Of a stretch of 44,137 nt of DNA, positions 9,423 through 26,484 are shown in pieces. How positions within the stretch are numbered: the stretch's first letter is position 1; the number at the start of each line of letters is the position of its first letter. Made by a program: the position numbers and the translations under genes. The DNA comes from a virus: the IMG/VR virus record IMGVR_UViG_3300010370_000002; one strand, written 5' to 3'. Under the pieces are notes generated by a model that ran no database searches, had not been told where the DNA came from, and was given only the letters and a program-made list of their open reading frames with translations.

Positions 9423-9446
9423 AATTTTATATTTTTATAATTAATA

Positions 9447-10058: not shown

Positions 10059-10060
10059 AA

Positions 10061-10591
10061 TTATTTAATTAATTTTTTTTGATCTTTTACAACATAAGTC
10101 ATTGAACCTAAACCAAGATCTTTTCCTGAAAGTTTATCAATGTTTTCTTGTTGACGATTATTTATTTTATTTTGATTATCTCTTTGTATTTTTTCATTCA
10201 TTTCCTCAGAAATTTCCATGGCATACCGCATAAACGTTTCGCCCATTTTATTTTGACCACCTCTGATTGGAGCAATTTCTAATCCATTTTCATCAGTAGC
10301 AGGTTTATATCCTAAGTCGATTAAATCTTGTAATCGATTAGGAATATTACCAGAAACCCAACGCCTTATAAAACCTGCCTTTTTGGGTAAGTCTGATAAA
10401 GCACCATGTCTTTTTAGATATGTGCGTGGTTTTCTAATAAATTCTTTTCCATCTGGTAATTTTACAATTTCTACATCACGATTAGTAAGTCTAATTTCTC
10501 TATCATTGTAAGTAGAAACCCTTTCTTGTACGTGTTCTTTTGAATTTTCTCTATTTGAATCAATATTTTTGTTTGTCATAAATTTTCTCAA
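10061..10591 (-). CDS. Head-module protein, function unknown
   Basis: 176-aa ORF between the scaffold and capsid genes. Confidence 0.4.
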   Translation of the reverse strand: MRKFMTNKNIDSNRENSKEHVQERVSTYNDREIRLTNRDVEIVKLPDGKEFIRKPRTYLKRHGALSDLPKKAGFIRRWVSGNIPNRLQDLIDLGYKPATDENGLEIAPIRGGQNKMGETFMRYAMEISEEMNEKIQRDNQNKINNRQQENIDKLSGKDLGLGSMTYVVKDQKKLIK

Positions 10592-10594
10592 TTA

Positions 10595-11599
10595 TTAATT
10601 ATTAAAATAGTCATTAACAGCGTTTAGCTGCATTTGTTTTATTTGCTCAGATGTAAAATTATGCTTTCTTGCAAAATATTGACATGTTTGACGCACGTCT
10701 AAAGGTAAATCATTATAAGTATATTGTTTTTTACCAACATTTATGCCTCTTTTACCACTTTCTACACTCGGAGCTTTAGTATTATTAAATTTATCACTAA
10801 ATCTTAAATGAATTTCTTCAGTAACCATTTCTAATCTTTCATTAAGAGGAATGCGTTCTGATAAAGTGCTAAAATAAGTTTCTGCATATCCCCTCATTGG
10901 TGAATTTTCATAAAACCAAGTATTGTCTGGAATCCAATTATCAAATATTTTTTTATCTTCAGGCTGTATTTGTGATTTTGGTTCTTCTTGGATTTTTTCT
11001 TCAATTTTATTTTCATTAAAAGAAATTTTATTTTTTTCTAATTCATTTCTTTGCTTTTGAATTGCTCTAACCTTAGCAACATCACCCTCTAAAATTGCAG
11101 CCTCTTCTGCTTCGTCTAAAGATTGAAAGCGTTTTTGATTATTTTCTTCATATGCATATTTTTGCACGTTTAATATAACGTCCATTTGTTTTTGCATTTC
11201 CTCTAAGCGTTTCTCTAAAGCTGTTTTTTCGGCAGTTAGTTTTCTATTTCTTTCATTTAAAACAGGAGTTTCTTTTTCCTGAATTTCTAAAAATTCTTCT
11301 GCTGTTTTATGAGGTTTTGGCGTTCCATCTTTATACCTGCCTTTAAAAAATTTGCCAGTTCTCCAGCCACGATCCCAAGCTTCTTTTTCTGTATCAGTTA
11401 AAGTTTCATAAAACGCTTTTTCTTCGCTTTTTGGTGATTTTTCAACTAAAACATTTTCTTTTTCAAGCTCCTCTTCTTCCATTTCTTCCAAAATTGGATT
11501 AGGAGGTAATTTTTTATTTTGTTCAACTTTTGGTTCTTGCTCTTGTGCATTTAAACCAATATCAATATCTATTTCCTCAGAACGATCAATTATTTGCAT
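10595..11599 (-). CDS. Scaffolding protein (putative)
   Basis: 334 aa, highly charged E/K-rich with coiled-coil character, between portal and capsid. Confidence 0.5.
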   Translation of the reverse strand: MQIIDRSEEIDIDIGLNAQEQEPKVEQNKKLPPNPILEEMEEEELEKENVLVEKSPKSEEKAFYETLTDTEKEAWDRGWRTGKFFKGRYKDGTPKPHKTAEEFLEIQEKETPVLNERNRKLTAEKTALEKRLEEMQKQMDVILNVQKYAYEENNQKRFQSLDEAEEAAILEGDVAKVRAIQKQRNELEKNKISFNENKIEEKIQEEPKSQIQPEDKKIFDNWIPDNTWFYENSPMRGYAETYFSTLSERIPLNERLEMVTEEIHLRFSDKFNNTKAPSVESGKRGINVGKKQYTYNDLPLDVRQTCQYFARKHNFTSEQIKQMQLNAVNDYFNN

Positions 11600-11934
11600 G
11601 TTTCCTCATTAATTTGAATTGCTAAAATACTGCGATCAAGAATAATTCTATATTCTTTACCATCTTTGGTTTGATCTTTGCTTAATCTATAACCTTCGTA
11701 AGATGGAATTAAAATTTTATCACCAACTTTAGGTTTTTTCTTCCATTCTCTGTCAGTTCCTTGATCAAAAGCTTTTTCGCCAATATCAATAATTGTTGCT
11801 AGGGTTTTAGCTCCTTGTAAATCATCTTTGGCAGATTCAGGTATAATTATTCCACCAGCAGTCTTTTCTTCAACCACATCAGGCAAAATTAAAATTCTAT
11901 ATTCAGGAACACTGTAACCAGAAGTATTAATCAT
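11590..11934 (-). CDS. groES: GroES/Cpn10-like co-chaperonin
   Basis: 114 aa. RILILPDVVEEKTAGGIIIPESAKDDLQ...KVGDKILIPSYEGY...EYRIILDRSILAIQ aligns by eye with E. coli GroES [26 protein letters not shown]...KVGDIVIFNDGYGV...EVLIMSESDILAIVE. Confidence 0.75.
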   Translation of the reverse strand: MINTSGYSVPEYRILILPDVVEEKTAGGIIIPESAKDDLQGAKTLATIIDIGEKAFDQGTDREWKKKPKVGDKILIPSYEGYRLSKDQTKDGKEYRIILDRSILAIQINEETCK

Positions 11935-12199: not shown

Positions 12200-14368
12200 T
12201 TACTCATTTTGATTAATATTATTATCAATAGCTTCAGGTTTAATTTCCTTAACTTGTTGATTCTCTAGCTTTGCTAGCTCTACTGCCGCTTTAAATTTTC
12301 TATCTTCTTTGCGGTCGTCCATTTCTTTTTGTTTTGTTTCGGCATCAATCATATTATCCAAAACATCAAGTTTTTCTTTAGTTTCAGCAATTTCAGTGTC
12401 TTTAACTAATTTACCTGCTTGTGCATAATTGACTAATACTTCGGAATCAGTTTTTGCCGATTCTTTTTGTAGTTTTATTTGCTCTAGTTCTAATTCAGCA
12501 GATTTGATTTGAACATTAGCTTGAATTTGCATGCGTTTAGTTTCTTCCTGTGCCATTGTTAATTGAACGGCAGGATCAGGTTGTGGTTGTGGTTGAATTA
12601 TAAATTTATCAAAATTTTCAATACCAGCTATTTCAAAAACTGTTTTATGCAACAACATTTGGTCAACATAAGGTGAATTAATAAAAGTCATCAAAAATTG
12701 CGCTTTTGCAAACTTTTGCATTGAGATCACATTTTCAGGATCTACAACTGGGACAATATCATAACCTTTTAAATCAAAATCTTCTTTAACATTTGGCGAT
12801 TCGTTCAATTTAATATCTAAAATTTCCGCATATTTCTTTTGAGACAAGTAAGTTGAATTTATTTCGTAGAATATTTTAACTTCTTGTTTTAACGAATTGT
12901 AAATTCTTTTAAATACACTCTTAAATTGTTTTTGCCCTTGTTCTGCCATGCCCATGTATGTAGTAGCGGCAATATTTCCAGCATTTTCACCAGTCAATAC
13001 ATCTCTTAAAGAAGCTAATTCTTTACCAGCATTGACCAAAAATTGCATTAAAACAAATAGGGTTTGCGATGGTTCAGCGTGTGGCAATGGAACGATAGCA
13101 TCACGAATATTTCCGCCGTAAGAATCAACCATTTTCCATTCAGACAATTTAAATGGCTTCATTCCACCAGAAATATTTAATGTTTTAGCAATAAATCCGC
13201 CACCTGTATTTTGTAAAGTTCCAGCATCATTAAGTTGATTAATATTTGAATTAATTGCGGAATTTATGTTATATAATAAATGTCCTAGTCCGATAGAGTA
13301 AAAAGATCCATCTGGTGAAGGAATAAAATTATATGCGGTAAAAAATTTTATTGGTTTAATTTTGATTATTTCTTGTTTTTTATTATACTTAACATCTTTT
13401 TCATTAAACCTTTTTACTAACTTTACTAATTTGTTTGTGGCTTTATGCACCACTGCAATATATGGTTCTGGGTATCCATCATTATCTAAATCAAAATAAT
13501 TATGTTGCTCTAAAAAAATAACCAAACCCGCTGATGCTTCATCACTTGTTTGTTTTTCATCGTTAGCATCAAGAGAATTATCAAAAGAGGCACTATCTTG
13601 GGCTTTTGGGTCGAAATCAAAATCAATGTAATCACCATTACGAATTGATGAAACAACATCTTGCGGATATTTTTCAATAATATGCGTAACTGGTGCATCA
13701 AAAGATGGGGCAAAATCGTTAATTATTAATTTATCGGGGTAAATTAAATCTGACTTTATGCATTGGTCATTATTGTCATAATAATTCTTTTTAAACATTA
13801 TCCCAAGCGTTGCTAAGCCCATAAACAATGCGTCCATGTCTTTTTCGTAATTCTCTATCTCTTCATTTAATTGATAGTTCATTACTGTTGCAACTCTTTG
13901 ACCTCTTTTAAGTTTAGCACCTACATTTTGAATTGCTGGTAAACCTGTTTCATCTAAAATAGCAATTGATCCATCTTCATTTCTCATTTCATTACCTTCG
14001 AGATCCTTCATCACTTCGCCATCATCATTGCCAATAACCTTGGCTTTTACAATATTACCATCTTTAAAAATTTCAGTATAACATTTTGCGGAAAATTCCA
14101 CGCAAGCTGTGGAAATTAAAGGAAACATTATGTTTGATGAGCCTTCAAAAGGAAATGAGCGTTTATCTCGAATAGCTAAAGTACACTTAACTAACTCTTG
14201 TAATACCTTTTGTTTTTCGCTTCTAGATTGCAAATCAGTGTTGTATCTTGTTAAGACTGTACTAGCAATAAGTGCCTTTGTTTGTTCCGACAATATGCTT
14301 GCTAGATTGTCAGTTGACAAAATAGTTTGAAAGTCAAGTTTGTCTCTTAAATCTTCTTGAATTAACAA
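12200..14368 (-). CDS. Portal protein (P22-size, with C-terminal coiled-coil barrel)
   Basis: 722 aa, immediately after the large terminase. Acidic FDLDNDGYPEPYIAV motif. Long E/K/Q-rich helical C-terminus. The start is the TTG chosen by the ORF track and is uncertain. Confidence 0.75.
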   Translation of the reverse strand: MLIQEDLRDKLDFQTILSTDNLASILSEQTKALIASTVLTRYNTDLQSRSEKQKVLQELVKCTLAIRDKRSFPFEGSSNIMFPLISTACVEFSAKCYTEIFKDGNIVKAKVIGNDDGEVMKDLEGNEMRNEDGSIAILDETGLPAIQNVGAKLKRGQRVATVMNYQLNEEIENYEKDMDALFMGLATLGIMFKKNYYDNNDQCIKSDLIYPDKLIINDFAPSFDAPVTHIIEKYPQDVVSSIRNGDYIDFDFDPKAQDSASFDNSLDANDEKQTSDEASAGLVIFLEQHNYFDLDNDGYPEPYIAVVHKATNKLVKLVKRFNEKDVKYNKKQEIIKIKPIKFFTAYNFIPSPDGSFYSIGLGHLLYNINSAINSNINQLNDAGTLQNTGGGFIAKTLNISGGMKPFKLSEWKMVDSYGGNIRDAIVPLPHAEPSQTLFVLMQFLVNAGKELASLRDVLTGENAGNIAATTYMGMAEQGQKQFKSVFKRIYNSLKQEVKIFYEINSTYLSQKKYAEILDIKLNESPNVKEDFDLKGYDIVPVVDPENVISMQKFAKAQFLMTFINSPYVDQMLLHKTVFEIAGIENFDKFIIQPQPQPDPAVQLTMAQEETKRMQIQANVQIKSAELELEQIKLQKESAKTDSEVLVNYAQAGKLVKDTEIAETKEKLDVLDNMIDAETKQKEMDDRKEDRKFKAAVELAKLENQQVKEIKPEAIDNNINQNE

Positions 14369-14450: not shown

Positions 14451-15983
14451 TTAATATCCTGTAATTGAATTTCTATTTGAAGCGTTCATAAACTCATCAT
14501 AAGCCCATTCATCAACAAAACCATTCATATTCTGCGCTTCTTGTTCAAGCCTACCTTTTGATGCAACCATTGTCCTAAAGGCATCTGCACAATGATTTTC
14601 TACTCCCTTAGCTGGAGTATCTCCAAATGCTCCAATGCTTTCTATAAATTTCTTTTTATATCCTCGAAGTCTTGTTAATCCTAGTTCACATTTTTTTGCA
14701 TCAAACCAACAACGAGGAAAAAACATTCTGACATTGTTAATATCTCCGATTAAATCGTTTGTACGCTCAATTCTAGTGAATTTAAACCCAAATTCTTTTG
14801 CTGTGTTTAAGCCGTTCTGACCATCATGATATGCTCTTTTAGTTATGTCGTGCGGTAAGAAATGATTGCCGTAATTGTAGTTCTTTTCTTTTAACATTTT
14901 TAAATAAAAAGGTAGCGGTTCATCAGTCCATTCGTAGTAATCTACCAGCATGTAATCAAAGCCCTTTTTCTGAAAGAACCAGATCGCTGTGAAATCATCA
15001 AGCCCAATATCCCAAGCAGTATGAACAGGCAAAGAACCGTCAATGCTTACTCTCCCAATTTTTCCATCTTTTTCCGCCTTGATTAATTCTTTCGACCAGT
15101 AAGCCCCAATAATAGCTTTTTCAAAAGCTTCCTTGCTATTGCTCGGGAACTCTTGCTTCATCAACTCGCCTTGCGTCTCTTCCTTCTTGCAGTACCAAGC
15201 TTGTTGTTGTCTTGTCAGCTTAATTCCTTCAACCTCAAGCTCTGCGAAGTAATCAGCCTGCTTAGTTGAGAAGTTATAATCAGCGTCCATTTGGTATTTC
15301 TTATCTTTCCACCAGCCAAAGAAATGAAATTTCCAGTCAAGAAGCGTTAGCTCCTCTTTCATTCTTTGCTTGCGTTCAGCCACTTGGCATAAATTAAAGA
15401 AGTGACCACTTGCCCCTTGTGCTGTTGACTCGATTACTATTTGTTGGCCTTGGTGTACTGTGTTTAAGCTTCCGCTCATTATCTCTTCAGCTTTCTCGGG
15501 TGACTTCCTGCATATCTTGCCAAACTCTGTGATGTGTAAGCGTTGAACTGTTCCAGACCTTGCCGAAGTAGTAACCGAATAGCTCGAACCATTGCTAAAC
15601 CTCATTATCTCCGTTGAGTCAGTAAGTAGCTTTCTATGTTCTTTAATTTCTGGCGGCAATCTATCGTAAGCATATCTTACTTTGTCTCTAAGCAACTTCT
15701 TAGCATCTTCTAAGTCATCGCCGATTAATACGGCTGTGATGTTTGAGTTAAATAAGCAGTCATCTAAATAATTGATGCAGTAATAAGTAGTAATTCCAAG
15801 CTGGCGAGCTTTTAAGATGATATTAAGCGGGTGGGTCTCTTCTATTAGCTCGCTTTGTGCTTCGTTGCAAATAAATTTAAACTCTTTCCCGTTCTCATCT
15901 TTACAATAATACAAATTAGACATACGCCAAGCTTTATTCCTCAAAAGCTCGGCTAATTTTCTTTTTTTTTCTTCGTTAATCAC
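14451..15983 (-). CDS. terL: Terminase large subunit
   Basis: 510 aa. N-terminal ATPase region (ILKARQLGITTY P-loop-like) and C-terminal nuclease-like region (HTAWDIGLDDFTAIWFFQ). Sits between terS and portal. GTG start. Confidence 0.85.
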   Translation of the reverse strand: MINEEKKRKLAELLRNKAWRMSNLYYCKDENGKEFKFICNEAQSELIEETHPLNIILKARQLGITTYYCINYLDDCLFNSNITAVLIGDDLEDAKKLLRDKVRYAYDRLPPEIKEHRKLLTDSTEIMRFSNGSSYSVTTSARSGTVQRLHITEFGKICRKSPEKAEEIMSGSLNTVHQGQQIVIESTAQGASGHFFNLCQVAERKQRMKEELTLLDWKFHFFGWWKDKKYQMDADYNFSTKQADYFAELEVEGIKLTRQQQAWYCKKEETQGELMKQEFPSNSKEAFEKAIIGAYWSKELIKAEKDGKIGRVSIDGSLPVHTAWDIGLDDFTAIWFFQKKGFDYMLVDYYEWTDEPLPFYLKMLKEKNYNYGNHFLPHDITKRAYHDGQNGLNTAKEFGFKFTRIERTNDLIGDINNVRMFFPRCWFDAKKCELGLTRLRGYKKKFIESIGAFGDTPAKGVENHCADAFRTMVASKGRLEQEAQNMNGFVDEWAYDEFMNASNRNSITGY

Positions 15984-16109: not shown

Positions 16110-16544
16110 TCATTTATTATTGTCAATTTCGCTTAATACTTCACCAAGCCAAGTGCTTGCAGTGCTTGTGTCTTTTACTTCGGCTTGAACTTTTGTAAAA
16201 TCACCAAATTTTTTAGGTTTTAGTTTTGAAGCAATCCATTTTCTGGAGTCAACTCTTAAGCGTGCTTGATTCACTGCCCCCGCGTCTATCTTGCCGAACG
16301 CGTCCATGGGCATTTCAGCATCGCATATTTCAGTTATTTCATCAGCAAATAGCTCCGCTTGCTCTTCTTTTGCGCGTGCGTATTGCTTGCTTAGCTCTTC
16401 ATTATTATTCAACCACTTCCAGACGCTCGTAAGATTCGGCATCTTCTCATCTTTGCATATTTTTCTTAATGATTCACCATTTGCGATTTTTTCGCATATT
16501 TCATCAAATAATTCTTGTGAAAATTTTACGCTGTTTTTTCTCAT
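16110..16544 (-). CDS. terS: Terminase small subunit (HTH type)
   Basis: 144 aa. N-terminal FSQELFDEICEKIANGESLRKICKDEKMPNLTSVWKWL...YARAKEEQAELFADEI is typical of HTH small terminases. First gene of the late arm. Confidence 0.65.
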   Translation of the reverse strand: MRKNSVKFSQELFDEICEKIANGESLRKICKDEKMPNLTSVWKWLNNNEELSKQYARAKEEQAELFADEITEICDAEMPMDAFGKIDAGAVNQARLRVDSRKWIASKLKPKKFGDFTKVQAEVKDTSTASTWLGEVLSEIDNNK

Positions 16545-17126: not shown

Positions 17127-17155
17127 TTGACTTATTGAATTAGCTTGTTTATGAT
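17127..17155 (+). promoter_or_regulatory. Sigma70-type early promoter: TTGACT - 17 bp - TATGAT
   Basis: TTGACT at 17127-17132 and TATGAT at 17150-17155, about 60 bp upstream of the first plus-strand ORF. Confidence 0.6.
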
Positions 17156-17197
17156 GCTTATTACAAATTAAATAAATCATTTAATTTAAATTTAATA

Positions 17198-17207
17198 TTA
17201 ACTTAAC
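17198..17207 (+). promoter_or_regulatory. Epsilon-like leader motif TTAACTTAAC, 10 nt upstream of the ATG at 17218 (one of at least 10 such leaders)
   Basis: Resembles the T7 gene 10 leader TTTAACTTTAAG; no GGAGG nearby. Confidence 0.5.
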
Positions 17208-17217
17208 TAAAAAAACT

Positions 17218-17526
17218 ATGACAAAACAAGAGCTAAGACTCATGGATCCACTCTATTATTATTATATTTTAGAAAATAATAATTGTACAAATAAATTCTA
17301 CTACAAAATTAACGCCCGCAATAGTTTTTTGAACAAACAAGATTTTAAAAACTTTATTAATTTTTTAAAAACTCAAAAAAAATTAGAGTGGAAATTAAAA
17401 AAGGAATGGTGCATATCCCCGGCAAATAAAAGGATTTTATGGATTGAATTTCAAGGCCTTTATGCTAATTTTTGGAATACTGGCAAAGGGTTAAAAGATT
17501 ACCGCAATTTATTTATAAACAATTAA
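17218..17526 (+). CDS. Hypothetical early protein
   Basis: 102-aa ORF preceded by the TTAACTTAAC leader. Confidence 0.55.
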   Translation: MTKQELRLMDPLYYYYILENNNCTNKFYYKINARNSFLNKQDFKNFINFLKTQKKLEWKLKKEWCISPANKRILWIEFQGLYANFWNTGKGLKDYRNLFINN

Positions 17527-17548
17527 TATTAACTTTAAAAAAAAATAT

Positions 17549-17836
17549 ATGAAAAATCTAGAAAAATATAAACAAGAATTATCTAAGCCTCATCAATCAT
17601 TCGAACCGCTAAAAAAATTAATCCAATCAAATTTAAGCGACATTGAAGTTGATCGCAATAATTCATCTGGATACCCTACCCATCCAGATTGGGACATTAT
17701 AATTAATAATAATAATGGCTTCATGGAATGGGGTAGCTACTTCCCGCAAGTAAGTATAACACACAAGCTTACTGGTCGCCGTGGTACTTGCACCATCTTC
17801 TTTGATAAATTGGCTTGCATTAACTATTACAATTAA
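17549..17836 (+). CDS. Hypothetical early protein
   Basis: 95-aa ORF preceded by a TTAACTTTAA leader. Confidence 0.55.
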   Translation: MKNLEKYKQELSKPHQSFEPLKKLIQSNLSDIEVDRNNSSGYPTHPDWDIIINNNNGFMEWGSYFPQVSITHKLTGRRGTCTIFFDKLACINYYN

Positions 17837-17870
17837 AATAAAAATTAATATTAACTTAACTAAAAAACAT

Positions 17871-18263
17871 ATGAAAAACGAACTTGATTTAAACGAAAAA
17901 AACGAATTAAAAGCAAACTTAAAAAAGAACTCAGCTTACAGCAATCTTTTAGCTTTGGCAAATAATGCTCGTTCACTCAAAGCAATGGATACCGACAAAA
18001 TCATCCCGAGACCTTTAAATTACTACATAAAACAAATCCACGGCTTAAGCGACGCTGAAGAGCTGGCCACTTACAAGGGCTGGTTGTCGAAGGGTTATGT
18101 CGTAAAAAAAGGTGAAAAGGGTTATTTATTCTTTTCTAGTCCGAAAATTATAAAAATAAAAATGGTTGATAATAATTGCCAGCCTGCCGGCGAGGAACTC
18201 GATAAAAGATTTTGCACGTGCTATTTATTCGCGAAATCACAAGTTGAGGAGTTAAAAAAATAA
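17871..18263 (+). CDS. Hypothetical early protein with ArdC N-terminal-like (ssDNA-binding, DUF1738-like) motif
   Basis: The ORF track starts at 17781. I prefer the ATG at 17871, which follows the TTAACTTAAC leader (17851-17860). ATYKGWLSKGYVVKKGEKGYLFF resembles the ArdC N-domain core. Confidence 0.35.
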   Translation: MKNELDLNEKNELKANLKKNSAYSNLLALANNARSLKAMDTDKIIPRPLNYYIKQIHGLSDAEELATYKGWLSKGYVVKKGEKGYLFFSSPKIIKIKMVDNNCQPAGEELDKRFCTCYLFAKSQVEELKK

Positions 18264-18315
18264 CTAAACAAACACCACGCCAAACCCGATTTTATTAACT
18301 TAAACAAAAAAATAT

Positions 18316-18558
18316 ATGAATATCAAATATAAAATAAATTGGTGCTTTAATACCGCTAAGGAAGCCGATAAAGCAATTGAAGCTTTGGGGGCTAAATCAC
18401 TTGACTATATTAGTTTTTATGACGATAGCAATAAATTAATTGAAACATATTCATCTATGCACACCCTACCTAATGGAGTCGCAGACTCTAGGACTAAAAT
18501 AGAAATTGCAAATCAATTTAAAAACGGCGCAAGTGTTTGTATTTTTGTCAGGACTTAA
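18316..18558 (+). CDS. Hypothetical early protein
   Basis: 80-aa ORF with a TTAACTTAAA leader. Confidence 0.5.
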   Translation: MNIKYKINWCFNTAKEADKAIEALGAKSLDYISFYDDSNKLIETYSSMHTLPNGVADSRTKIEIANQFKNGASVCIFVRT

Positions 18559-18644
18559 ATAATGAAACAAATAGAATTTAACTCGCACAAGCTTCAAGCG
18601 GTAATCGCTGATGTTTGGAATATTAACCATTAATTTAAAATATT

Positions 18645-18806
18645 ATGTCAACACTAGAATTTAAAAAAGGGCAATTAGTAATGCTTGCCAAAAATAATGA
18701 ATTTATTGGTTTTGTGGTTTTTTCTCACTACGAAAAAAAACACAAAAACGGCAAATATTGGTTCGATATTGACGGAAATAAATATTCAATTAACGATTTT
18801 GCATAA
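18645..18806 (+). CDS. Hypothetical small protein (53 aa, below the track cutoff)
   Basis: Hand translation: MSTLEFKKGQLVMLAKNNEFIGFVVFSHYEKKHKNGKYWFDIDGNKYSINDFA. Fills an otherwise empty gap; ATTAATTTAAAA leader. Confidence 0.4.
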   Translation: MSTLEFKKGQLVMLAKNNEFIGFVVFSHYEKKHKNGKYWFDIDGNKYSINDFA

Positions 18807-18825
18807 TAACAATTAATTTTAAACT

Positions 18826-19152
18826 ATGAAAAACGAAAAAAAAGAAAATATAGAGCTAATAATTTCACAAGAAATTTTTAAGCGAGAAATTGAAAGCATT
18901 GAAAAAATATTTGCCGATAAAGGCACGCTTAAAAATAATTTAAAATATCACAACGAGGCAATAAACGCAACATTAAAATCATTTTTTGATTTCGCTAATC
19001 AAGTTTTGCAAAAATGTATTGATGATAGTTTAAAAACTTATTTTGAGGTCCCTAGATTCTTAAAAATGAATTTAGAAAATTTTGTTGAAAGCTTTAATCA
19101 CAATTTACAGATTTTAAACGTTGCCGGACGATTAGTTAAATTTATGGATTAA
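18826..19152 (+). CDS. Hypothetical early protein
   Basis: 108-aa ORF. Confidence 0.5.
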   Translation: MKNEKKENIELIISQEIFKREIESIEKIFADKGTLKNNLKYHNEAINATLKSFFDFANQVLQKCIDDSLKTYFEVPRFLKMNLENFVESFNHNLQILNVAGRLVKFMD

Positions 19153-19194
19153 CTTTAAAGGCAAAATTTATTAATAACTTTAATTTAAATCTAT

Positions 19195-19380
19195 ATGAAT
19201 AAAAATAAAATAACTTACAGCGAAAAAAATAAATATGGGGCATGGATAATCCATTTTATCGTTAAAAACACTGAAAAACCCCACCTATTAAACCAAGAAA
19301 TAAAACGCCAATTCATGGGATACACGAAAAAAGACGCCCTAGAATTAGCAAAAAACGAATTGGTAACGGCTATTTACTAA
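19195..19380 (+). CDS. Hypothetical early protein
   Basis: 61-aa ORF. Confidence 0.45.
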   Translation: MNKNKITYSEKNKYGAWIIHFIVKNTEKPHLLNQEIKRQFMGYTKKDALELAKNELVTAIY

Positions 19381-19528
19381 CAACTTTAATTTAAAACTTA
19401 TGCAAGATTTACTTCAAAAAAGACCTCAAAATTGCACTACCTTTTTAAACCTGAAAAGGAGCAACCCAATAAATAAACTAATTTTTTGGGTCAAAAATAT
19501 TATTAACTAACTAATAACGGGGGCAATT

Positions 19529-20539
19529 ATGAACAAATTAATCGATATACAAATTTCAAACAACGAGCTTATTTTAAAATTTGATAACGGCGGTTATATT
19601 AAGGTGAATAATCTAGACTGCTTCAAAATAAGCGTTGGTGAATGCTCAAAAAAATTGAATTATTTTAAATTTTTTCAGACTTCTTTTTACGAAACCGACA
19701 CGTTTAATGACGATGTTAAATGGCTACTCGAAAAAAAACTGTTAGATTCTTTCGAAAAGGAATTAATGACAAAGGCAGAATATTCAAATATGGTGTTAGC
19801 TAAATTGAAGGGTGAGTTATTCACTTATGACTCACCCTATTATAATGACTCTTGGGACCCATACGAAAACCCTTACACTTACGATCATCAGTGTTTAATT
19901 TGTAGTAATGGAAAGGCAATTTTATTAGATTTATTAGTCGACTGGTGGTACGATAGCCCTTTTGACATGTTACAACGTGCATTAAAGATAATAAACGAGA
20001 ATTTCGAAGTCTATAATATTATTGAAAATCTTGAAAATTATGAAAATGTAAAACTTGAGTTGAAAGATGTTTTTATAGAGTTTCGCGAAATTTATGAGGA
20101 ACAACAGGCGAAAGAAAGAGATTTACAGCTGAAATCAGAAAAAAATCAAAAGTATATTCATATTTTAACGAACCAAGAGTTATTTTACAATAATCTTAAA
20201 AAAGAAGTTACGGCCAATGATTATGATTTGATTTTGTCGTATACCAATTACAATTTTGATTATTTAATTAATAACGAACTTGCAAAACCATCAAAAAAAC
20301 TAAGAGACTGCGTATACAAGTATCTTGATAGGCACATCACAGCTCTTTTAAGGTCAAAGGGTTTTGATTTATCGCTTTATGAAATTTTGTTTACAAATTT
20401 TAAAATAAGAAAATGTAAAAAATTATTGCTAAAATTTGATGCGGAACAAATTGGACCGGACCACGATAAATCTTGGCAAATTTCTAACTTTTCTTTTTCA
20501 ACAACTAACAACGGGGGCAATTATGAAAGAACTAACTAA
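19529..20539 (+). CDS. Hypothetical protein
   Basis: 336-aa ORF preceded by AACGGGGGCAATTATG (SD-like GGGGG). Confidence 0.6.
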   Translation: MNKLIDIQISNNELILKFDNGGYIKVNNLDCFKISVGECSKKLNYFKFFQTSFYETDTFNDDVKWLLEKKLLDSFEKELMTKAEYSNMVLAKLKGELFTYDSPYYNDSWDPYENPYTYDHQCLICSNGKAILLDLLVDWWYDSPFDMLQRALKIINENFEVYNIIENLENYENVKLELKDVFIEFREIYEEQQAKERDLQLKSEKNQKYIHILTNQELFYNNLKKEVTANDYDLILSYTNYNFDYLINNELAKPSKKLRDCVYKYLDRHITALLRSKGFDLSLYEILFTNFKIRKCKKLLLKFDAEQIGPDHDKSWQISNFSFSTTNNGGNYERTN

Positions 20540-20681
20540 AAAAGAAAAACATGTTTTGGCTAATAAAAAATATCGCGCAAAGAAACAAAAAGAAATAAAT
20601 AAAATTATTGTATTGAATAAACTTTACTTATTGATTATAATTCTTTTATCCTGTTTATTAATTATAAACAAAATTTATTAA
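20523..20681 (+). CDS. Small membrane-anchored protein (52 aa)
   Basis: I prefer the ATG at 20523, preceded by the same AACGGGGGCAATT string as 19529. Basic N-terminus followed by the hydrophobic segment LYLLIIILLSCLLII. Confidence 0.45.
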   Translation: MKELTKKEKHVLANKKYRAKKQKEINKIIVLNKLYLLIIILLSCLLIINKIY

Positions 20682-20700
20682 AAATTAAAAAGGAGAAAAA

Positions 20701-20949
20701 ATGAATTTATTTGAAATAATGGGAAATGTGGTAAAAAACCACAACGAAAATGCTGATAACATAACAAAAAGATATGTTGAAGCTCATCAAGTTAATATCA
20801 TTGAAAAGATTGATATTATTAGCGTTGCTTATCCAGAAGTGGCTAGGCACTTAGAGCGCTTAAATAATTCTAATAACGAGCAAGATCAAAACACAGCGCA
20901 AGATATTGCGAATTGTATTTGTGAATTACTTAACAATAAGGGGGAGTAA
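20701..20949 (+). CDS. Hypothetical protein
   Basis: 82 aa, AAAGGAG SD upstream. Confidence 0.55.
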   Translation: MNLFEIMGNVVKNHNENADNITKRYVEAHQVNIIEKIDIISVAYPEVARHLERLNNSNNEQDQNTAQDIANCICELLNNKGE

Positions 20950-21234
20950 ATGTATTTTAAAAATTATAAATCCGGAAAACTTTATCTTTTTAATTTTTAT
21001 AATAATAAAAGAGAAGACCTTTTAGAAGAATTAAAAAAGGTAAACAAAGAATTGTTTGAGGTGCAGGCTTTTTTAAAAAGTTATGAGGATGTTGAATCCT
21101 CAATTAAAAACGATAAAGAAGTTTTTAACGAATTACAAAAAAAAATGTACCTCGAACAACTTGAAAATTTACAGAGTCATCACGATTTTGTGAATTTTCA
21201 AAAAACAATCAAAGAATTATTAACATTAAAATAA
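20950..21234 (+). CDS. Hypothetical protein (coiled coil)
   Basis: 94 aa, GGGGGAG SD upstream. Confidence 0.55.
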   Translation: MYFKNYKSGKLYLFNFYNNKREDLLEELKKVNKELFEVQAFLKSYEDVESSIKNDKEVFNELQKKMYLEQLENLQSHHDFVNFQKTIKELLTLK

Positions 21235-21243
21235 ATAAAAACC

Positions 21244-21459
21244 ATGACAAAATATATTAAAAAAAACAATGACGGAACTTACGATAAAACAATAATCAAT
21301 TTTTTTATCAAAGAAAAATCAATTGCCAAAACAGTGTTTAAAATGAACCATGACCACGGCGTAATAATTTCAAGGGCTGAAATAATCAACCTTTTGAAAA
21401 ATACTGATAACGGACATTTAATCAAAACAAGAACAAATAAGAAAAAAAATGACCAATAA
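21244..21459 (+). CDS. Hypothetical protein
   Basis: 71-aa ORF. Confidence 0.5.
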   Translation: MTKYIKKNNDGTYDKTIINFFIKEKSIAKTVFKMNHDHGVIISRAEIINLLKNTDNGHLIKTRTNKKKNDQ

Positions 21460-21736
21460 CTTAAAAAAAATAATAAAAGCTTATTTAACGGTTATTTTTA
21501 TAGCCTTAGCGAGTTATTGCTGGCAAGGATATAAAAATAACTGCATGTCAAATAATAACGAGCTAATAGTTTTAGAAACTCAATTATTTGAGGCTAAAAG
21601 TATAATCGAGGATTTAAAAAGCCAGTTAGCTAATAACGAGCTGGCTTTAAAACAAGCGCACAATCAAATAATGAGCTTTAAAAGCAAATGTAGAGATTGT
21701 CAATTTTTAACTCAAAACCAAAACTGGGGGGAATAA
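21449..21736 (+). CDS. Hypothetical membrane-anchored coiled-coil protein
   Basis: 95 aa, N-terminal hydrophobic segment AYLTVIFIALASYCW. Confidence 0.5.
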   Translation: MTNNLKKIIKAYLTVIFIALASYCWQGYKNNCMSNNNELIVLETQLFEAKSIIEDLKSQLANNELALKQAHNQIMSFKSKCRDCQFLTQNQNWGE

Positions 21737-22170
21737 TGACTAAAATTTATAACACAAAACAAGAATTAATGTTTGAAGATGAGAGTTTGTCCTTAAAGGA
21801 GCTCGTAGAAAAGAATAAAAGCAATTTAAAATATGCGGATTTAAGGTTTGCGGATTTAGGGTTTGCGGATTTAAGGTTTGCGAATTTAAACGAGGCAAAT
21901 TTAGAGGGTGCGGATTTAGAGGGTGCGGATTTAAGGTTTGCAAATTTAGAGGGTGCGGATTTAGAGGGTGCGGATTTAAGGGATGCAGATTTAAGGGATG
22001 CGAGTTTAAGGGGTGCGGATTTATGGGGTGCAAATTTAAAAAAGGCGAATTTAAGTGGTGCGTGTTTATGGGGTGCAAATTTAAACTATGCCAGATACTC
22101 CTCACAAACAGTATATAGTTGTGGTAAAACTGTGGGAGAATTAGTAAAAAACGGAGGGAATAATGACTAA
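21736..22170 (+). CDS. Pentapeptide-repeat protein 1 (about 17 A(D/N)LXX repeats)
   Basis: I prefer the ATG at 21736 after the GGGGGGA SD. Sequence MTKIYNTKQELMF...YADLRFADLGFADLRFANLNEANLEGADLEGADL... Confidence 0.85.
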   Translation: MTKIYNTKQELMFEDESLSLKELVEKNKSNLKYADLRFADLGFADLRFANLNEANLEGADLEGADLRFANLEGADLEGADLRDADLRDASLRGADLWGANLKKANLSGACLWGANLNYARYSSQTVYSCGKTVGELVKNGGNND

Positions 22171-22790
22171 AATTTATAACACAAATAACAAATTAATGTT
22201 TCAAGATGATAATTTGTCTTTAAAGGAGCTAGTAGAAAAGAATAAAAGCAATTTAAATTATGCGAATTTAACCGGAGCAAATTTAACTGGTGCGGATTTA
22301 AATTATGCGAATTTAACCGGAGCAAATTTAACTGGTGCGGATTTAAAGGGTGCGGATTTAACTGGTGCGGATTTAAGGTTTGCGAATTTAACCGGAGCGA
22401 ATTTAAGGTTTGCGAATTTAAGGGGAGCGGATTTAAGTAGAGCGAATTTATTTGAGGCGGATTTAAGGTTTGCGAATTTATTTGAGGCGGATTTAAGGTT
22501 TGCGAATTTAACCGGAGCGAATTTAAGGTTTGCGAATTTAAGTGGAGCGAATTTATTTGAGGCGAATTTAAGGTTTGCGAATTTAAGGTTTGCGAATTTA
22601 ACCGGAGCGAATTTAATGGGAGCGGATTTATTTGAGGCGAATTTAAGTGGAGCGAATTTAATGGGAGCGGATTTAATGGGAGCGGATTTAAGTAGAGCGA
22701 ATTTAAGGGACTCGGATTTAAGGGAAGCGAGGTTATGGTGTGCAAATTTAGAGGGTGCAAATTTAGAGGATGCGGATTTAGAGGGAAGGC
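21833..22790. repeat. Coding tandem repeat with 15-bp periodicity (gcNgatttaNNNNNN), underlying the pentapeptide repeats
   Basis: Read directly, for example gcggatttaaggttt gcgaatttaaccgga repeated many times. Confidence 0.85.
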
Positions 22791-22846
22791 ATGTTAGGTA
22801 CTCCTCACAATTAGTAAAAAACGGAGGGATTAATGAACAAAAATGA
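22163..22846 (+). CDS. Pentapeptide-repeat protein 2 (about 35 A(D/N)LXX repeats), paralogue of the upstream gene
   Basis: 227 aa. The N-terminus MTKIYNTNNKLMFQDDNLSLKELVEKNKSNL is near-identical to protein 1. The start overlaps the upstream stop, with the SD inside the upstream codons. Confidence 0.85.
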   Translation: MTKIYNTNNKLMFQDDNLSLKELVEKNKSNLNYANLTGANLTGADLNYANLTGANLTGADLKGADLTGADLRFANLTGANLRFANLRGADLSRANLFEADLRFANLFEADLRFANLTGANLRFANLSGANLFEANLRFANLRFANLTGANLMGADLFEANLSGANLMGADLMGADLSRANLRDSDLREARLWCANLEGANLEDADLEGRHVRYSSQLVKNGGINEQK

Positions 22847-23003
22847 GAAATTATCGTTATTTTTACTTTGGTTGCTAGTTTTTTCAATCTTATTGGTCGC
22901 AACACAATTCAATTTTGTTAATAAATTACTTTTCGGGGCTTATAGCACGATAAGTTTATTATATATTGCGTTAAAAATAAAAGACTTGACAAAAAGAAAG
23001 TGA
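22833..23003 (+). CDS. Small two-TM membrane protein (56 aa, below the track cutoff), translationally coupled to pentapeptide-repeat protein 2
   Basis: Hand translation: MNKNEKLSLFLLWLLVFSILLVATQFNFVNKLLFGAYSTISLLYIALKIKDLTKRK. Preceded by the same AACGGAGGGATTAATG context as 22163. Confidence 0.5.
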   Translation: MNKNEKLSLFLLWLLVFSILLVATQFNFVNKLLFGAYSTISLLYIALKIKDLTKRK

Positions 23004-23013
23004 TGATTAAAAA
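22986..23013 (+). promoter_or_regulatory. Possible sigma70-type promoter: TTGACA - 16 bp - TAAAAA
   Basis: TTGACA at 22986-22991, weak -10 near 23008. Located in the last codons of the 56-aa ORF, as with the promoters at 27106 and 28946. Confidence 0.35.
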
Positions 23014-23039
23014 TAAATCAAACTTTTTTCATAGGGTTT

Positions 23040-23282
23040 TTTAGTTAAGTTGGGCAAAGGGGGAGTAGTTAACCCCCTTCGCTTTCTTATAGTAAGCTTG
23101 TTTAATAGACCGTTTTACAAGTTTACTATTGGCAAGCGAAAGTTGAGCGCTATTTAATCATTGAATCAATAGACAAAGATGAGTATGCTTGCCAGCACAT
23201 AAACATTTCGGGGGGGGATTGTTTATTATTTATGGTGAGGCTTGCCCCCCGCAACCTCACCGCCACGTTAGGGGAAGCAGAA
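23040..23282 (+). ncRNA. Structured, GC-enriched non-coding leader or small RNA upstream of the replication module
   Basis: Helices seen by hand: AAGGGGG/CCCCCTT (23057-63/23073-79); 13-bp inverted repeat ATAGTAAGCTTGT/ACAAGTTTACTAT (23089-101/23117-129, one mismatch); TGGCAAGC/GCTTGCCA (23130-37/23187-94); G8 (23210-17); GGTGAGG/CCTCACC (23234-40/23255-61) with C6 in its loop. Confidence 0.4.
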
Positions 23283-23483
23283 ATGCAACAAACACAGGAA
23301 ACAGTGATAAGCGAGATTAAGCGACAACAAAATAGACAAATTGCTAGAACTCTTGACGACTTGGCAGATTTAAAATTGCCAAAGCTTGTTGAAGAAAGAA
23401 TTAAGCAGGGATTCTATGACTTTGCGGATAATCTTATAAAATTAATACAGGACACTCAAAATGACAAATCAAACACAAAATAA
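23283..23483 (+). CDS. Hypothetical protein (66 aa)
   Basis: The track ORF starts at 23232 inside the structured region. I prefer the ATG at 23283 after GGGGAAG. Confidence 0.5.
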   Translation: MQQTQETVISEIKRQQNRQIARTLDDLADLKLPKLVEERIKQGFYDFADNLIKLIQDTQNDKSNTK

Positions 23484-24096
23484 ATCTTTTATCTTACATA
23501 AGGATAGTCTCTCGGTTTTGAATAAACTTTCTGACGAAGAAGCTGGGAAACTTTTTAAAGCAATTTTCAACTATCAATCTCAAAATATTTTACCCACAAA
23601 TAATTTAATTTCTATCATTTTTGAGCCCTTTTTAAATCAGTTTAAAAGAGACGAAGAAAAATATCAAAATGTTGTTGAGAGGAATAAAATCAACATTGCA
23701 AAAAGGTGGAATAAACCTAATACCAAAAATACCACTGGTAAAATTGGTATACCAAAAGATACCAAAAATACCGATAGTGATAGTAAGAATAAGAGTGATA
23801 GTGATAGTAAGAGTGATAGTAAGAATGATTTACCAATCTTTATAAATAAAGATTTATTTAATTCTTTTGTTGAGATGCGAGTAAAGATAAAAAAACCACT
23901 TACAGAAAAAGCAAAAGAATTATTGCTAAAAGATTTAACAAAGTTTGAAAATTTAAAAATTGGTAATGCTAACATAGCGCTTGAAAATTCTATTAAGAAT
24001 AGCTGGCAGGGAGTTTTTGAACCAAAACAAAATAACTTTACAAACAATGATACACCTAGTTTTTTAAGTTCATTTCAACACTTGAGGAATAAATAA
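23461..24096 (+). CDS. Replication initiation / helicase-loading protein (DnaD-like replisome organiser)
   Basis: 211 aa. N-terminal LSDEEAGKLFKAIFNY motif, a DSDSK low-complexity linker, and C-terminal FVEMRVKIKKPLTEKAKELLLKDL...SWQGVF resembling a DnaD-type domain. Directly upstream of dnaB. Confidence 0.5.
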   Translation: MTNQTQNKSFILHKDSLSVLNKLSDEEAGKLFKAIFNYQSQNILPTNNLISIIFEPFLNQFKRDEEKYQNVVERNKINIAKRWNKPNTKNTTGKIGIPKDTKNTDSDSKNKSDSDSKSDSKNDLPIFINKDLFNSFVEMRVKIKKPLTEKAKELLLKDLTKFENLKIGNANIALENSIKNSWQGVFEPKQNNFTNNDTPSFLSSFQHLRNK

Positions 24097-24097
24097 T

Positions 24098-25396
24098 ATG
24101 GAACAAGAAAATTTTAATCAAGAGCTAGAAGAAGCTATAATTGGCAATATTCTAGCAAATAACTTTAATTTGTTAAAATCACCAAATTTAGAAGCTAAGC
24201 ATTTTTATTTTAATGATTACAAATTAATATTTGAAGAAATCATTAAAAGAATTGGTGCGGGTGAAGTTGTTGATTTTAGAATTATTACAACATTTCTAAA
24301 AAACAATAGCATTAAAACAAGCATTGTTAAAGATTTAATGAACGCTACTGGTGGAATTTGTGATATGGAGTTTTATTCAAACGAAATTATAAGATTATGG
24401 CAAATAAGAGAGCTAAAGAATATTTTAAATGTTATCATAAACGAAAAAATAAGCGATTTTGATGCTATTAAAACAAAATTAGAGGGAGAGATAGCTGATA
24501 TATCAATAAACATGTCTAAACAGCCTAAAAAGATTGATAAAATTATTGATGATGTTTTATCAGTTCACCAAAAAGAATTGGTATTCACTGGCTTTGAAAA
24601 ATTAGATATTCTTACTGGTGGCTTTGAATTAGGAAATTTAGTAATAGTCGGGGGAAGACCTTCAAGCGGTAAAACTACATTTTGTCTTAACTTTGCTAAA
24701 AATGTTTCTCTAAATCATGGTGTTATGTTTTTTTCAATGGAAGTTTCCGACAAAAGCTTAGCGAGAAAGTTTTTAAATGAAACAACTGGTGTAAGTGCCT
24801 ATCGATTAAAAATTGGGGTAATATCCGAAGGCGACTCAATGGCTTTAGAAAATAACCGCCACACTTGGAAAAATTATAATTTAATAATCGACCAAGAAAA
24901 CGGTTTAACTATTTTGGCTATTAGAAGCAAGATTAAACGAGCAATGCTTAAATCTGATATTAAGATGGTTTGTATTGACTATTTACAACTTATCGCAAGC
25001 TCAAGTAAAGAATTTTCTAGAGAGCAACAAATATCAAGAATTGCGGAAGGCTTAAAGAAGATAGCAAAAGATTTTAATATTGTTGTTGTTGCATTATCGC
25101 AACTATCACGGGCTGGAGACGCAAGAGAAAATAAAAGACCAATCCTAAGCGATTTAAGAGACTCGGGAGCTATAGAACAAAATGCCGATATAGTTATGTT
25201 TACACACAGGGACGAGTATTTTTTAGAGCGTGAAAAAGTTCCTGAACACTCAAAGCATTATGCGGAATGGCTTGAATGTTATAACAATGCAAAAGGCTTA
25301 GCTGATATAATTGTTTCTAAAAATCGTGAAGGCGAATGCGGTGATATTAAATTTAGATTTAATGGTAAACAAAGTCAATTTTCGGAGGTAAAATGA
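24098..25396 (+). CDS. dnaB: Replicative DNA helicase DnaB
   Basis: 432 aa. Walker A GGRPSSGKTTF, Walker B-like MVCIDYLQLI, SQLSRAGD, LRDSGAIEQNADIV. Confidence 0.9.
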   Translation: MEQENFNQELEEAIIGNILANNFNLLKSPNLEAKHFYFNDYKLIFEEIIKRIGAGEVVDFRIITTFLKNNSIKTSIVKDLMNATGGICDMEFYSNEIIRLWQIRELKNILNVIINEKISDFDAIKTKLEGEIADISINMSKQPKKIDKIIDDVLSVHQKELVFTGFEKLDILTGGFELGNLVIVGGRPSSGKTTFCLNFAKNVSLNHGVMFFSMEVSDKSLARKFLNETTGVSAYRLKIGVISEGDSMALENNRHTWKNYNLIIDQENGLTILAIRSKIKRAMLKSDIKMVCIDYLQLIASSSKEFSREQQISRIAEGLKKIAKDFNIVVVALSQLSRAGDARENKRPILSDLRDSGAIEQNADIVMFTHRDEYFLEREKVPEHSKHYAEWLECYNNAKGLADIIVSKNREGECGDIKFRFNGKQSQFSEVK

Positions 25397-25614
25397 TTCA
25401 TATTAAAAACATACTCAATAAAACTATTAATGAAAGTAAAGCAAAATTCTATCATCACAATCGAGATATTTTTATTAAATATTTTGAGAGTATTCAACAA
25501 TATCAGAATTTAATTGAAGCTGGCAATTTCAAGAAAATGAATGATATTATCAAAGAAAAAACCGATTTTACTTTTGATAAAGTGGAAGAGGTTGTTAACA
25601 ACTTAAATAAATAA
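25393..25614 (+). CDS. Hypothetical protein
   Basis: 73 aa, ATGA overlap with dnaB. Confidence 0.5.
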   Translation: MIHIKNILNKTINESKAKFYHHNRDIFIKYFESIQQYQNLIEAGNFKKMNDIIKEKTDFTFDKVEEVVNNLNK

Positions 25615-25617
25615 ACT

Positions 25618-25932
25618 ATGGAAAAAAATATAGAACAAGATTCAATAAAAATAATTCAAAATGGGATTATGGAATGGCAACCGATCGAAACAATTCCCGA
25701 AGGTTACCTTGTTTTTGTTTGGCTAACTCTGAAAAATGATAAATTGTTGGACGAGCGAGGATACTTTTATAGTAGATTCGTTAAATCATGTAAAGACAAA
25801 AATTTTTGTTTTGGTTGGAGTACACTTTATTTAGATAATGTTGAAAAATCTTTATTTGAAAAAGGAGAGTTATATTTTTCACACTGGATGCCACTACCAC
25901 CTAAACCACCAATTATTAACTTAAATAAATAA
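25618..25932 (+). CDS. DUF551-like phage protein
   Basis: 104 aa. WQPIETIPEG ... SHWMPLPPKPP matches the DUF551 pattern. Confidence 0.55.
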   Translation: MEKNIEQDSIKIIQNGIMEWQPIETIPEGYLVFVWLTLKNDKLLDERGYFYSRFVKSCKDKNFCFGWSTLYLDNVEKSLFEKGELYFSHWMPLPPKPPIINLNK

Positions 25933-25935
25933 ACT

Positions 25936-26277
25936 ATGAAAATAACATCTTACGAAATTTCAAAAAAACTAAAAGAAGCGGGGTTTGAGGCTGAAACTGA
26001 TTTTTATTGGTATTGCTATGATAAAGGGCAAGAAATGAGACATATTGCAGATGCTGATGGCAAAGGTAATGTTAAAGCTTACGACCTCGAAACGCTACTT
26101 TATGCTTTGCCTAAAATTAACAAACAAGAATATCTTTTATGTAGTGGTGGAATTGTCTATTTAAATGATGATTATATTTCAGTTGGTAAAGAAAAAAACG
26201 AATCACTCGCAGATACCGCTGCACGCTTATTAATAAAGCTTTATAATGCTGGTTTTGTTAAATTTAAGGAGGAGTAA
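25936..26277 (+). CDS. Hypothetical protein
   Basis: 113-aa ORF. Confidence 0.5.
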   Translation: MKITSYEISKKLKEAGFEAETDFYWYCYDKGQEMRHIADADGKGNVKAYDLETLLYALPKINKQEYLLCSGGIVYLNDDYISVGKEKNESLADTAARLLIKLYNAGFVKFKEE

Positions 26278-26478
26278 GTGGGTAAAGAAGTGAAGTTATT
26301 AGAAAAAGATTATTTGATAAGACAACTCAAAGGAATGATTCTTATCTTAGAAGGAGATCCGATGGAGGGGAGGTATAACTCAGATTATATTGATTGCAAA
26401 TTTGAAAGAATTTTGTCAGGGCAAGGAATAAGATTTCATGCTTTGATTGAGGAACAACTAAACAACAAGGAGGAGTAA
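26278..26478 (+). CDS. Hypothetical protein (GTG start)
   Basis: 66 aa, AAGGAGGAG SD 4 nt upstream of the GTG. Confidence 0.5.
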   Translation: MGKEVKLLEKDYLIRQLKGMILILEGDPMEGRYNSDYIDCKFERILSGQGIRFHALIEEQLNNKEE

Positions 26479-26484
26479 ATAAAT

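Follow-up and report, generated by a model that had tools for sequence, protein, structure and literature searches.

A Repeated Leader without Shine-Dalgarno Sequences in a ~44-kb Phage: A Possible Portable Translation Signal and Point of Cassette Exchange

A short A/T-rich leader is repeated directly upstream of 13 genes in a freshwater phage genome of ~44 kb and 31% G+C (IMG/VR virus record IMGVR_UViG_3300010370_000002; its whole stretch of 44,137 nucleotides (nt) is hereafter called the window). Each copy consists of a core, (T)ATTAACTTAA, followed by an A-rich, G-free spacer and the ATG, and the copies are found on the coding strand only. The repeat is a genuine feature, specific to this group of phages. 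We propose that it is a portable, Shine-Dalgarno (SD)-independent translation leader that doubles as a crossover point for cassette exchange, a reading to which we give about even weight. According to this proposal, a cassette of ~20–45 nt, in which a hairpin or C-rich piece may precede the core, spacer and ATG, would serve at the RNA level as an SD-independent initiation region, i.e., an unstructured A/U-rich leader with AAC at about -21..-16 that recruits the 30S subunit of the host, most likely via ribosomal protein bS1 or another platform contact, in a host whose own mRNAs mostly lack SD sequences. The leader would be deployed where a gene is spaced from its upstream neighbor, while SD-like sequences at abutting or overlapping genes would couple initiation to termination. 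The same 20–45 nt, shared ahead of many unrelated genes, also provides the homology for insertion, deletion and exchange of open reading frame (ORF) cassettes, which the phage-encoded Sak/Rad52-like annealing protein and RecE-like exonuclease could drive. The part in recombination is shown by genome comparison, and a translational role is suggested by the register of the leader, its exclusivity with SD sequences, its use before the capsid gene and the start-site statistics of the likely host.

Results and Discussion

Position and Sequence of the Leader

In the 13 window genes, the core starts 18–25 nt 5' of the ATG, most often 21–22 nt, and occurs with the variants ATTAATTTAA, AACTTTAATTTAA and AACTTAAATAAATAA. 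The trinucleotide AAC has its first A at -21..-18 in nearly all of these sites. The first-pass annotation, which likened the element to the epsilon enhancer of the T7 gene 10 leader, had named eleven sites, all of which exist in the window; we noticed two more (before the ATGs at 25618 and 25936), plus a degenerate copy before the major capsid gene. Its description of these sites needed some correction. The stated distance of 8–14 nt to the ATG holds approximately for seven sites (7–14 nt), while the four TTAATTT-type sites (i.e., those before 18645, 18826, 19195, and 19400) are only 4–6 nt away, and the word TTAAYTTAA is replaced by TTAACTTTA or TTAATTTTA before 17549 and 18826.

What distinguishes the element is its position and strand. 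ATTAAC is the top k-mer in the -35..-1 regions, where it occurs upstream of 16 of 74 genes vs. 1.6 expected (p 4e-12), so that the anticipated enrichment upstream of starts was borne out. Eight of the 14 window copies of ATTAACTT are located 21–24 nt 5' of a start on the same strand, a condition that only 1.5% of all positions satisfy. Over-representation across the whole window was considered as a signal and rejected, as the counts are within or near the shuffle range: TTAAYTTAA is of unremarkable abundance (20 vs. 12.2 ± 3.4 in shuffles), and ATTAACTTAA with one mismatch is found 24 times vs. 21 in shuffles. Expectation-maximization (EM) motif discovery in the phage family against a genome-wide background yielded a diffuse pattern, TTAAnTAAA, with upstream stop codons as a confounder. 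An element providing stops in three frames was also rejected: by eye, the core gives TAA in only two frames, and the actual upstream stops are 5' of the core.

Exclusivity with Shine-Dalgarno Sequences

SD-like sequences are found before none of the 13 motif-led genes and before 27 of the 63 other genes (without/with SD, 13/0 vs. 36/27; Fisher p 0.003). The first-pass annotation was correct that none of its sites has a GGAGG, for neither GGAG nor GAGG occurs at any of them, and GGAG, GAGG, AGGA, and GGGG are all absent from the 13 motif leaders. The minimum free energy of the start regions is -0.8 kcal/mol for motif-led genes, -3.9 kcal/mol for genes with SD sequences and -2.5 kcal/mol for those with neither. 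The motif-led start regions are thus the least structured in the genome, as expected for an S1-loading or standby site.

The two kinds of start region differ in junction architecture. Where the gap to the upstream gene is ≤4 nt, SD-like words precede 42% of genes in the window and 45% of genes in relatives; at gaps of 16–60 nt, the motif is found in 42% of cases in the window and 23% in relatives. The "middle" genes listed in the first-pass annotation do have GGAGG-type sequences, and almost all of these "strong GGAGG" genes are stop-start coupled (e.g., GGAGTAA-ATG). Of the earlier proposal that two initiation signals separate temporal or functional gene classes, the part that is supported is that the motif occupies the SD position and is mutually exclusive with SD sequences. 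The separation into early and middle classes is rejected, because the split tracks junction architecture and the late major capsid gene of the relatives also has the motif.

A second repeated word, TGAGTAAATGAT(G), was found before the minus-strand starts of late-arm genes at 5589, 6858, 12196, 14368, and 40654 and is present also in the relatives L041 and L044. GAGTAA occurs upstream of starts six times vs. 0.5 expected. The TGAGTAAATGAT(G) word may be a late regulatory or a stop-start signal.

The Leader in Related Phages

Relatives, likewise freshwater phages, were collected from IMG/VR as TerL-anchored loci. The same leader is found in the early arms of L017, L024, L028, L030, and L031, the last with seven sites such as ATATTAACTTAAAAAAACAAAAT-ATG. 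In the family pool, 35 of 75 non-redundant ATTAACTT copies are located 16–28 nt 5' of an ORF of at least 40 amino acids (aa), with a spacing of 21–22 nt in 21 of them, and the ORFs behind these 35 copies belong to 25 unrelated protein clusters. Seven permuted control words of the same composition gave 0–2 matches each; the eighth, AACTTTAT, gave 8/46 and overlaps motif variants. Upstream of the major capsid gene, TATTAAY followed by a G-free A/T spacer, without an SD sequence, was found in 15 of 15 distinct relatives.

An IMG/VR scan with the pattern TATTAACTTAA-N8-13-ATGAA matched at least 117 stretches of DNA, 80 of which were listed. Among the matches listed, nearly all are single and chance-like, and the contigs with multiple copies are relatives of this phage. 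The more distant lineage L044 (330-8746, minus-strand early arm) has a different homogenized G-free junction, TCAACTAAAnCAAAACTAA, before its early ORFs, which suggests that junction sequences evolve in concert within a genome.

The Likely Host and Its Start Signals

The likely host of the phage is the metagenome-assembled genome (MAG) Proteobacteria bacterium WB5_3A_111 (hereafter G001; 1.4 Mb, ~34% G+C) or a close relative, because spacers of its clustered regularly interspaced short palindromic repeats (CRISPR) match the window. Two arrays with 36-nt repeats and ~30-nt spacers were found (L099:5821-6155 in contig C91 and L107:434-742 in contig C25); their spacers include exact matches (100% identity) to window 18440-18468 and 10039-10068, as well as near-identical matches to ~35255-35285 and 32830-32859. 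Among the C91 spacers is one that reads as TTTTATTAACTTAACTAAAAAAAACTTA, the junction motif itself, in reverse complement. G001 also includes phage-only contigs that are 91–100% identical to parts of the window, and by our own reading its 16S rRNA looks alphaproteobacterial.

The 16S rRNA of G001 ends in CCTCCTTA (...ACCTCCTTA) and retains the CCTCC anti-SD. SD-like words nevertheless precede only 7–8% of 299–442 G001 genes, and most genes of the ribosomal-protein operon (e.g., in L087; the host contigs are L046-L110) are without SD sequences. By junction, SD sequences were found at 14% of gaps ≤4 nt vs. 4–9% at larger gaps. An anti-SD combined with ~7% SD genes in a small-genome proteobacterial MAG is an unusual profile for Proteobacteria. 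G001 also encodes a six-domain S1 protein.

Further analyses revealed a faint counterpart of the phage signal in the leaders of G001. G falls to 6.7% in the -30..-1 regions, and ATTAA, AATTAA, TTAAC, and AACT are enriched at -25..-11, even before genes at least 60 nt from any neighbor. AAC forms a sharp single-position peak at -19..-17 (28 genes vs. a mean of 10.7 per position; Poisson p 8e-6, or ~3e-4 once corrected for 37 positions), which is the register of the phage motif. Host genes in this peak have phage-like flanks (e.g., ATTAACTTAATA, gattAACttaataag, and tacAACttaaaaaaat), and the leaders of fusA, groES, and groEL contain ATTAAC, AACAAATTAAT, and AACTTAAAT.

Exchange of Cassettes at the Leader Copies

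Comparison of closely related genomes shows that copies of the leader are crossover points for cassette exchange. A near-identical phage in G001 (contig C134, 91–100% identical) lacks ORF 25618-25932, which encodes a 104-aa ORFan, and the breakpoints are exactly in the repeated AACTTAAATAAA..ATG junction that flanks this ORF in the window. A segment common to L024, L025, L028, and L030 (85% identity) extends from the motif at 17845 to ~20 nt past the motif-led ATG at 18316, so that the cassette shared with L028 (17845-18335) has a motif at each end. In these four relatives the ArdC-N-like ORF directly follows the early promoter, and in the window two extra motif-led ORFs are found between them. 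In that stretch, the similarity of L017 and L031 to the window is limited to 36 nt of junction (17521-17556) and the end of a relic gene. ORF 27785-28276 is flanked by two hairpin-plus-motif copies of 43–45 nt as direct repeats, and junction pairs share 21–45 nt of identity. Because the same 20–45 nt precede many unrelated genes, the copies also act as recombination homology. The ORFs downstream of the motif are mostly ORFans, the majority having no Pfam or PHROG family, and the early region is mosaic among relatives.

The relic gene end is located at 18562-18633. This 23-codon relic ORF (MKQIEFNSHKLQAVIADVWNINH) has nucleotide identity of 80–86% in L017, L024, L028, L030, and L031, where it would seem to be coding sequence for the C terminus of an upstream gene (..AVIAEVWNIN in L017). 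It looks like the remaining 3' end of a replaced gene.

The same observations could be explained by recombination alone, with linkers spread and homogenized by cassette exchange, any G-free A/T-rich spacer sufficing and the sequence having no role in expression. The precise cassette indel between two copies, the homology blocks that end at motifs, the 36-nt junction-only matches, the identity between paired junctions, the different junction word in the L044 lineage, the restriction of multi-copy occurrence to this family among the IMG/VR matches listed and the rarity of the full motif in host genes are all consistent with this explanation. We nonetheless consider it rather unlikely. The orthologous capsid junction keeps TATTAAY across phages with TerL only 72–94% identical while the sequence of its spacer drifts; host genes, which are outside cassette shuffling, show AAC at the same register; and the exclusivity with SD sequences is strict.

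Several points weigh against the leader being a translation signal as well as a crossover point. The different junction of L044 is as expected from concerted evolution by recombination, and the 21–45 nt of junction identity is what recent copying would produce and cannot be taken as a sign that a short motif is under selection. The translational role is argued from position, SD exclusivity and comparison with a host that is itself putative, G001 being a MAG tied to the phage by spacers. The gene starts of G001 were called naively at the first ATG. The full motif is rare before G001 genes, where a loose pattern precedes 27 of 482, and EM on G001 leaders recovered only a weak 4-bit AAWTT-type motif; a generic host motif was rejected as an explanation on these grounds. 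The phage core is, moreover, far more stereotyped than a generic host signal needs to be.

That stereotypy would suit an mRNA site for an RNA-binding protein or endoribonuclease of the phage or host (a RegA-like repressor, or RegB-like or RNase E-type cleavage) that co-regulates or inactivates messages. Many accessory early genes have the motif where the ribosome would bind, early ribosome-binding sites are the targets of T4 RegA and RegB (PMC1702504 for RegB), and many phage ORFans have no assigned function. However, no RNA-binding or nuclease domain was recognized in the early ORFs, the motif before the late capsid gene of relatives fits an early shut-off signal poorly, and host genes show a similar register. 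We regard such a site, which the first-pass annotation had raised as an alternative, as improbable.

A Promoter or a Site of rRNA Pairing

The element could alternatively be a -10-only promoter, in which TAACTT is the -10 hexamer and each gene has its own transcript with a 5–10 nt leader, like the T4 early and late promoters before small genes. With its A2 and T6, TAACTT resembles a -10 box; two copies are directly 3' of terminator-like hairpins (27740 and 28279) as in the cassettes of T4-type phages discussed below, and mRNAs that are nearly leaderless would be in keeping with the fixed spacing to the ATG. Clear TTGACA-17-TAnnnT promoters are, however, found elsewhere in the phage, and the first copy of the motif is ~40 nt 3' of a sigma70-like one (17127..17155), which places the motif inside the 5' leader or a polycistronic RNA. 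At 35 junctions, TTGACA matches were no better than at random positions, and no conserved columns or information content were found upstream of the core; a sigma70 consensus scan gave as many matches as in shuffles, none of them junction-specific. The motif is located mid-operon before the capsid gene, and neither a phage sigma factor nor an RNA polymerase was recognized in the early ORFs. A -10-only promoter is thus quite improbable, more so than a regulator or RNase site.

Least probable, to the point of being hardly credible, is the direct equivalent of the T7 epsilon, i.e., an enhancer pairing with 16S rRNA outside the anti-SD. One site has exact TTAACTTTA and others are one base off. Yet the best Watson-Crick match of the motif to the G001 16S rRNA is 6–7 nt, which 50–96% of shuffled motifs reach, and with G:U pairs it is 9–10 nt, reached by 12–33%. 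None of the three motif forms compared with the G001 16S rRNA, by either pairing rule, exceeded shuffles, and no pairing with the 3' tail was found; the 16S complementarity considered in the first-pass annotation thus does not hold up for G001. Alphaproteobacterial 16S rRNA does not have the stretch equivalent to E. coli 458-466, and even in E. coli the pairing model did not hold (PMC8748333).

Features of the Window

The coordinates of the leader copies and of the genes around them are given in Table 1. Terminator-like hairpins are found at two of the 13 window junctions and at some junctions in relatives, and the other junctions are without them. Longer junctions (window 18268-18292 and those in L024, L031, L147, L165, and L182) also have ACACCAC(R)AARCC(Y), a C-rich and G-poor element, 4–8 nt 5' of TTT-ATTAACTT. 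Within the Sak-like gene, 124 nt (window 29380-29503) are 86% identical in DNA sequence to Lactococcus P335-group phages (Tuc2009, TP901-1, and bIL285). Such nucleotide conservation of this gene across very different hosts is unusual.

Table 1. Leader copies and neighboring features in the window.
Feature	Position	Strand	Sequence or remarks
Major head protein (late arm)	8517-9422	-
Degenerate leader copy	9423..9446	-	TATTAATTATAAAAATATAAAATT; before major capsid gene (start 9422); relatives have TATTAACTTA there; SD in none
GroES-like (late arm)	11590-11934	-
Portal (late arm)	12200-14368	-
TerL (late arm)	14451-15983	-
TerS (late arm)	16110-16544	-
Sigma70-like early promoter	17127..17155	+	TTGACT-17-TATGAT; upstream of first motif-led ORF; relatives carry homologous TTGACT-17-CATAAT
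Early and replication arm	17218-34591	+	DnaB-like helicase, Sak-like annealing protein, RecE-like exonuclease, dUTPase, methyltransferase
Leader	17196..17217	+	TATTAACTTAACTAAAAAAACT; before ATG 17218 (102-aa ORFan)
Leader	17527..17548	+	TATTAACTTTAAAAAAAAATAT; before ATG 17549; holds exact TTAACTTTA (T7 epsilon word)
Leader	17849..17870	+	Before ATG 17871 (ArdC-N-like ORF); left end of cassette common to L024, L025, L028, L030
Leader	18293..18315	+	Before ATG 18316; preceded by C-rich element ACACCACGCCAAACCCG; L028 homology stops ~20 nt past ATG
Variant leader	18621..18644	+	TATTAACCATTAATTTAAAATATT; before ATG 18645
Variant leader	18808..18825	+	AACAATTAATTTTAAACT; before ATG 18826
Variant leader	19174..19194	+	ATAACTTTAATTTAAATCTAT; before ATG 19195
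Variant leader	19380..19399	+	ACAACTTTAATTTAAAACTT; before ATG 19400 (26-codon ORF, doubtful gene)
Junction copy	25598..25617	+	ACAACTTAAATAAATAAACT; before ATG 25618; overlaps last codons of preceding ORF
Junction copy	25914..25935	+	TATTAACTTAAATAAATAAACT; before ATG 25936; with copy at 25598 brackets ORF 25618-25932
Junction cassette (45 nt)	27740..27784	+	Terminator-like hairpin GCTCGGAAAGACGGGC plus motif; before ATG 27785
Second hairpin-plus-motif copy	28279..28321	+	Before ATG 28322
Leader	29000..29030	+	TATTAACATTAACTTAACTTAAAATAACTAT; before ATG 29031 (Sak-like single-stranded DNA annealing protein)

Comparison with Known Systems

The epsilon (Enh) of T7 gene 10, UUAACUUUA, is also an A/U-rich word of 9 nt, nearly the same in sequence, and stands in a phage leader before a highly expressed or early gene. 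The exact word is found at 17529-17537 and one-base variants, TTAACTTAA and TTAATTTAA, at other sites. The link to epsilon made in the first-pass annotation is, however, one of sequence resemblance only: epsilon augments and acts together with an SD sequence, of which the phage leaders have none, and this phage has the word at more than 10 junctions, where it is also a recombination point. The pairing model of epsilon has been refuted, its anti-enhancer region is absent from alphaproteobacterial 16S rRNA, and the enhancer is dispensable in Agrobacterium (PMC8748333). The phage element, like T7 epsilon, probably acts as an unstructured S1-binding site.

The promoter early stem-loops (PeSLs) of T4-type phages (Arbiol et al., 2010, PMC2839356; Comeau et al., 2014, PMC4122927) are likewise repeated intergenic cassettes that extend from the upstream stop to the downstream start, are concentrated before ORFans in the hyperplastic early region and mediate gene insertion, deletion and replacement between close relatives. 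Two of the 13 window copies include a terminator-like hairpin and stand as direct repeats on either side of a gene. PeSLs differ in having a sigma70 -35/-10 promoter and an SD sequence inside the cassette, neither of which the phage cassette contains; the conserved part here is the untranslated leader itself. They are also found in T4-type myoviruses, while the phage studied here is a ~44-kb phage with a Sak/RecE-like recombination module.

Non-SD A-rich ribosome-binding sites characterize the "group B" genomes (GeneMarkS-2, PMC6028130; Flavobacterium johnsoniae, PMC6847099), in which the anti-SD is also kept, SD genes are also few and a G-poor, A-rich signal is located at a short fixed distance from the start of first and internal genes. 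Consistent with this pattern, the phage motif shows its spacing peak of 21–22 nt both at the promoter-proximal gene and at genes further inside the operon. In contrast to group B, the putative host has an alphaproteobacterium-like 16S rRNA, and only 2% of Proteobacteria belong to that group (PMC6028130). The phage core ATTAACTTAA, with its C at about -17, is also much more specific than an A-run, and at -22..-12 it is further upstream than the Bacteroides motif, whose spacing is ~9 nt. Finally, the group B motif precedes most genes of a genome, whereas the phage motif precedes 13 of 76 phage genes and the host signal is a weak AAWTT or AAC.

The S1-bound A/U-rich and ACA/CA-type enhancers of E. 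coli (PMC2176067, PMC3879156) are, like the phage leader, unstructured and A/U-rich with interspersed C upstream of the start, and they raise initiation independently of SD pairing, as the leader is proposed to do. They differ in that they add to an SD sequence, have no fixed register and have no described role in recombination.

Implications

Work on how ribosomes choose start sites without SD pairing has concentrated on Bacteroidetes and cyanobacteria. The present phage supplies a compact, stereotyped candidate signal of ~11 nt at a fixed register, together with a CRISPR-linked likely host in whose genes the signal recurs faintly at that position, and the phage genome is a natural experiment with the motif at spaced junctions and SD sequences at coupled ones. 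A bolder, tentative and on balance doubtful extension concerns the AAC-centered leader (UAUUAACUUAA, whose C is ~17 nt 5' of the AUG). In this view, ribosomes of a non-SD alphaproteobacterial lineage would recognize the leader by its sequence and select the start site without an SD, reading it at a fixed register via bS1 or another platform component, and the phage would have sharpened it to a consensus and made it into a mobile expression adaptor for newly acquired genes.

The proposed leader would also widen the idea of mobile regulatory cassettes for modular shuffling from promoter-terminator units such as PeSLs to a translation leader. Such a leader would explain how foreign ORFs can be plugged into an operon with immediate expression.

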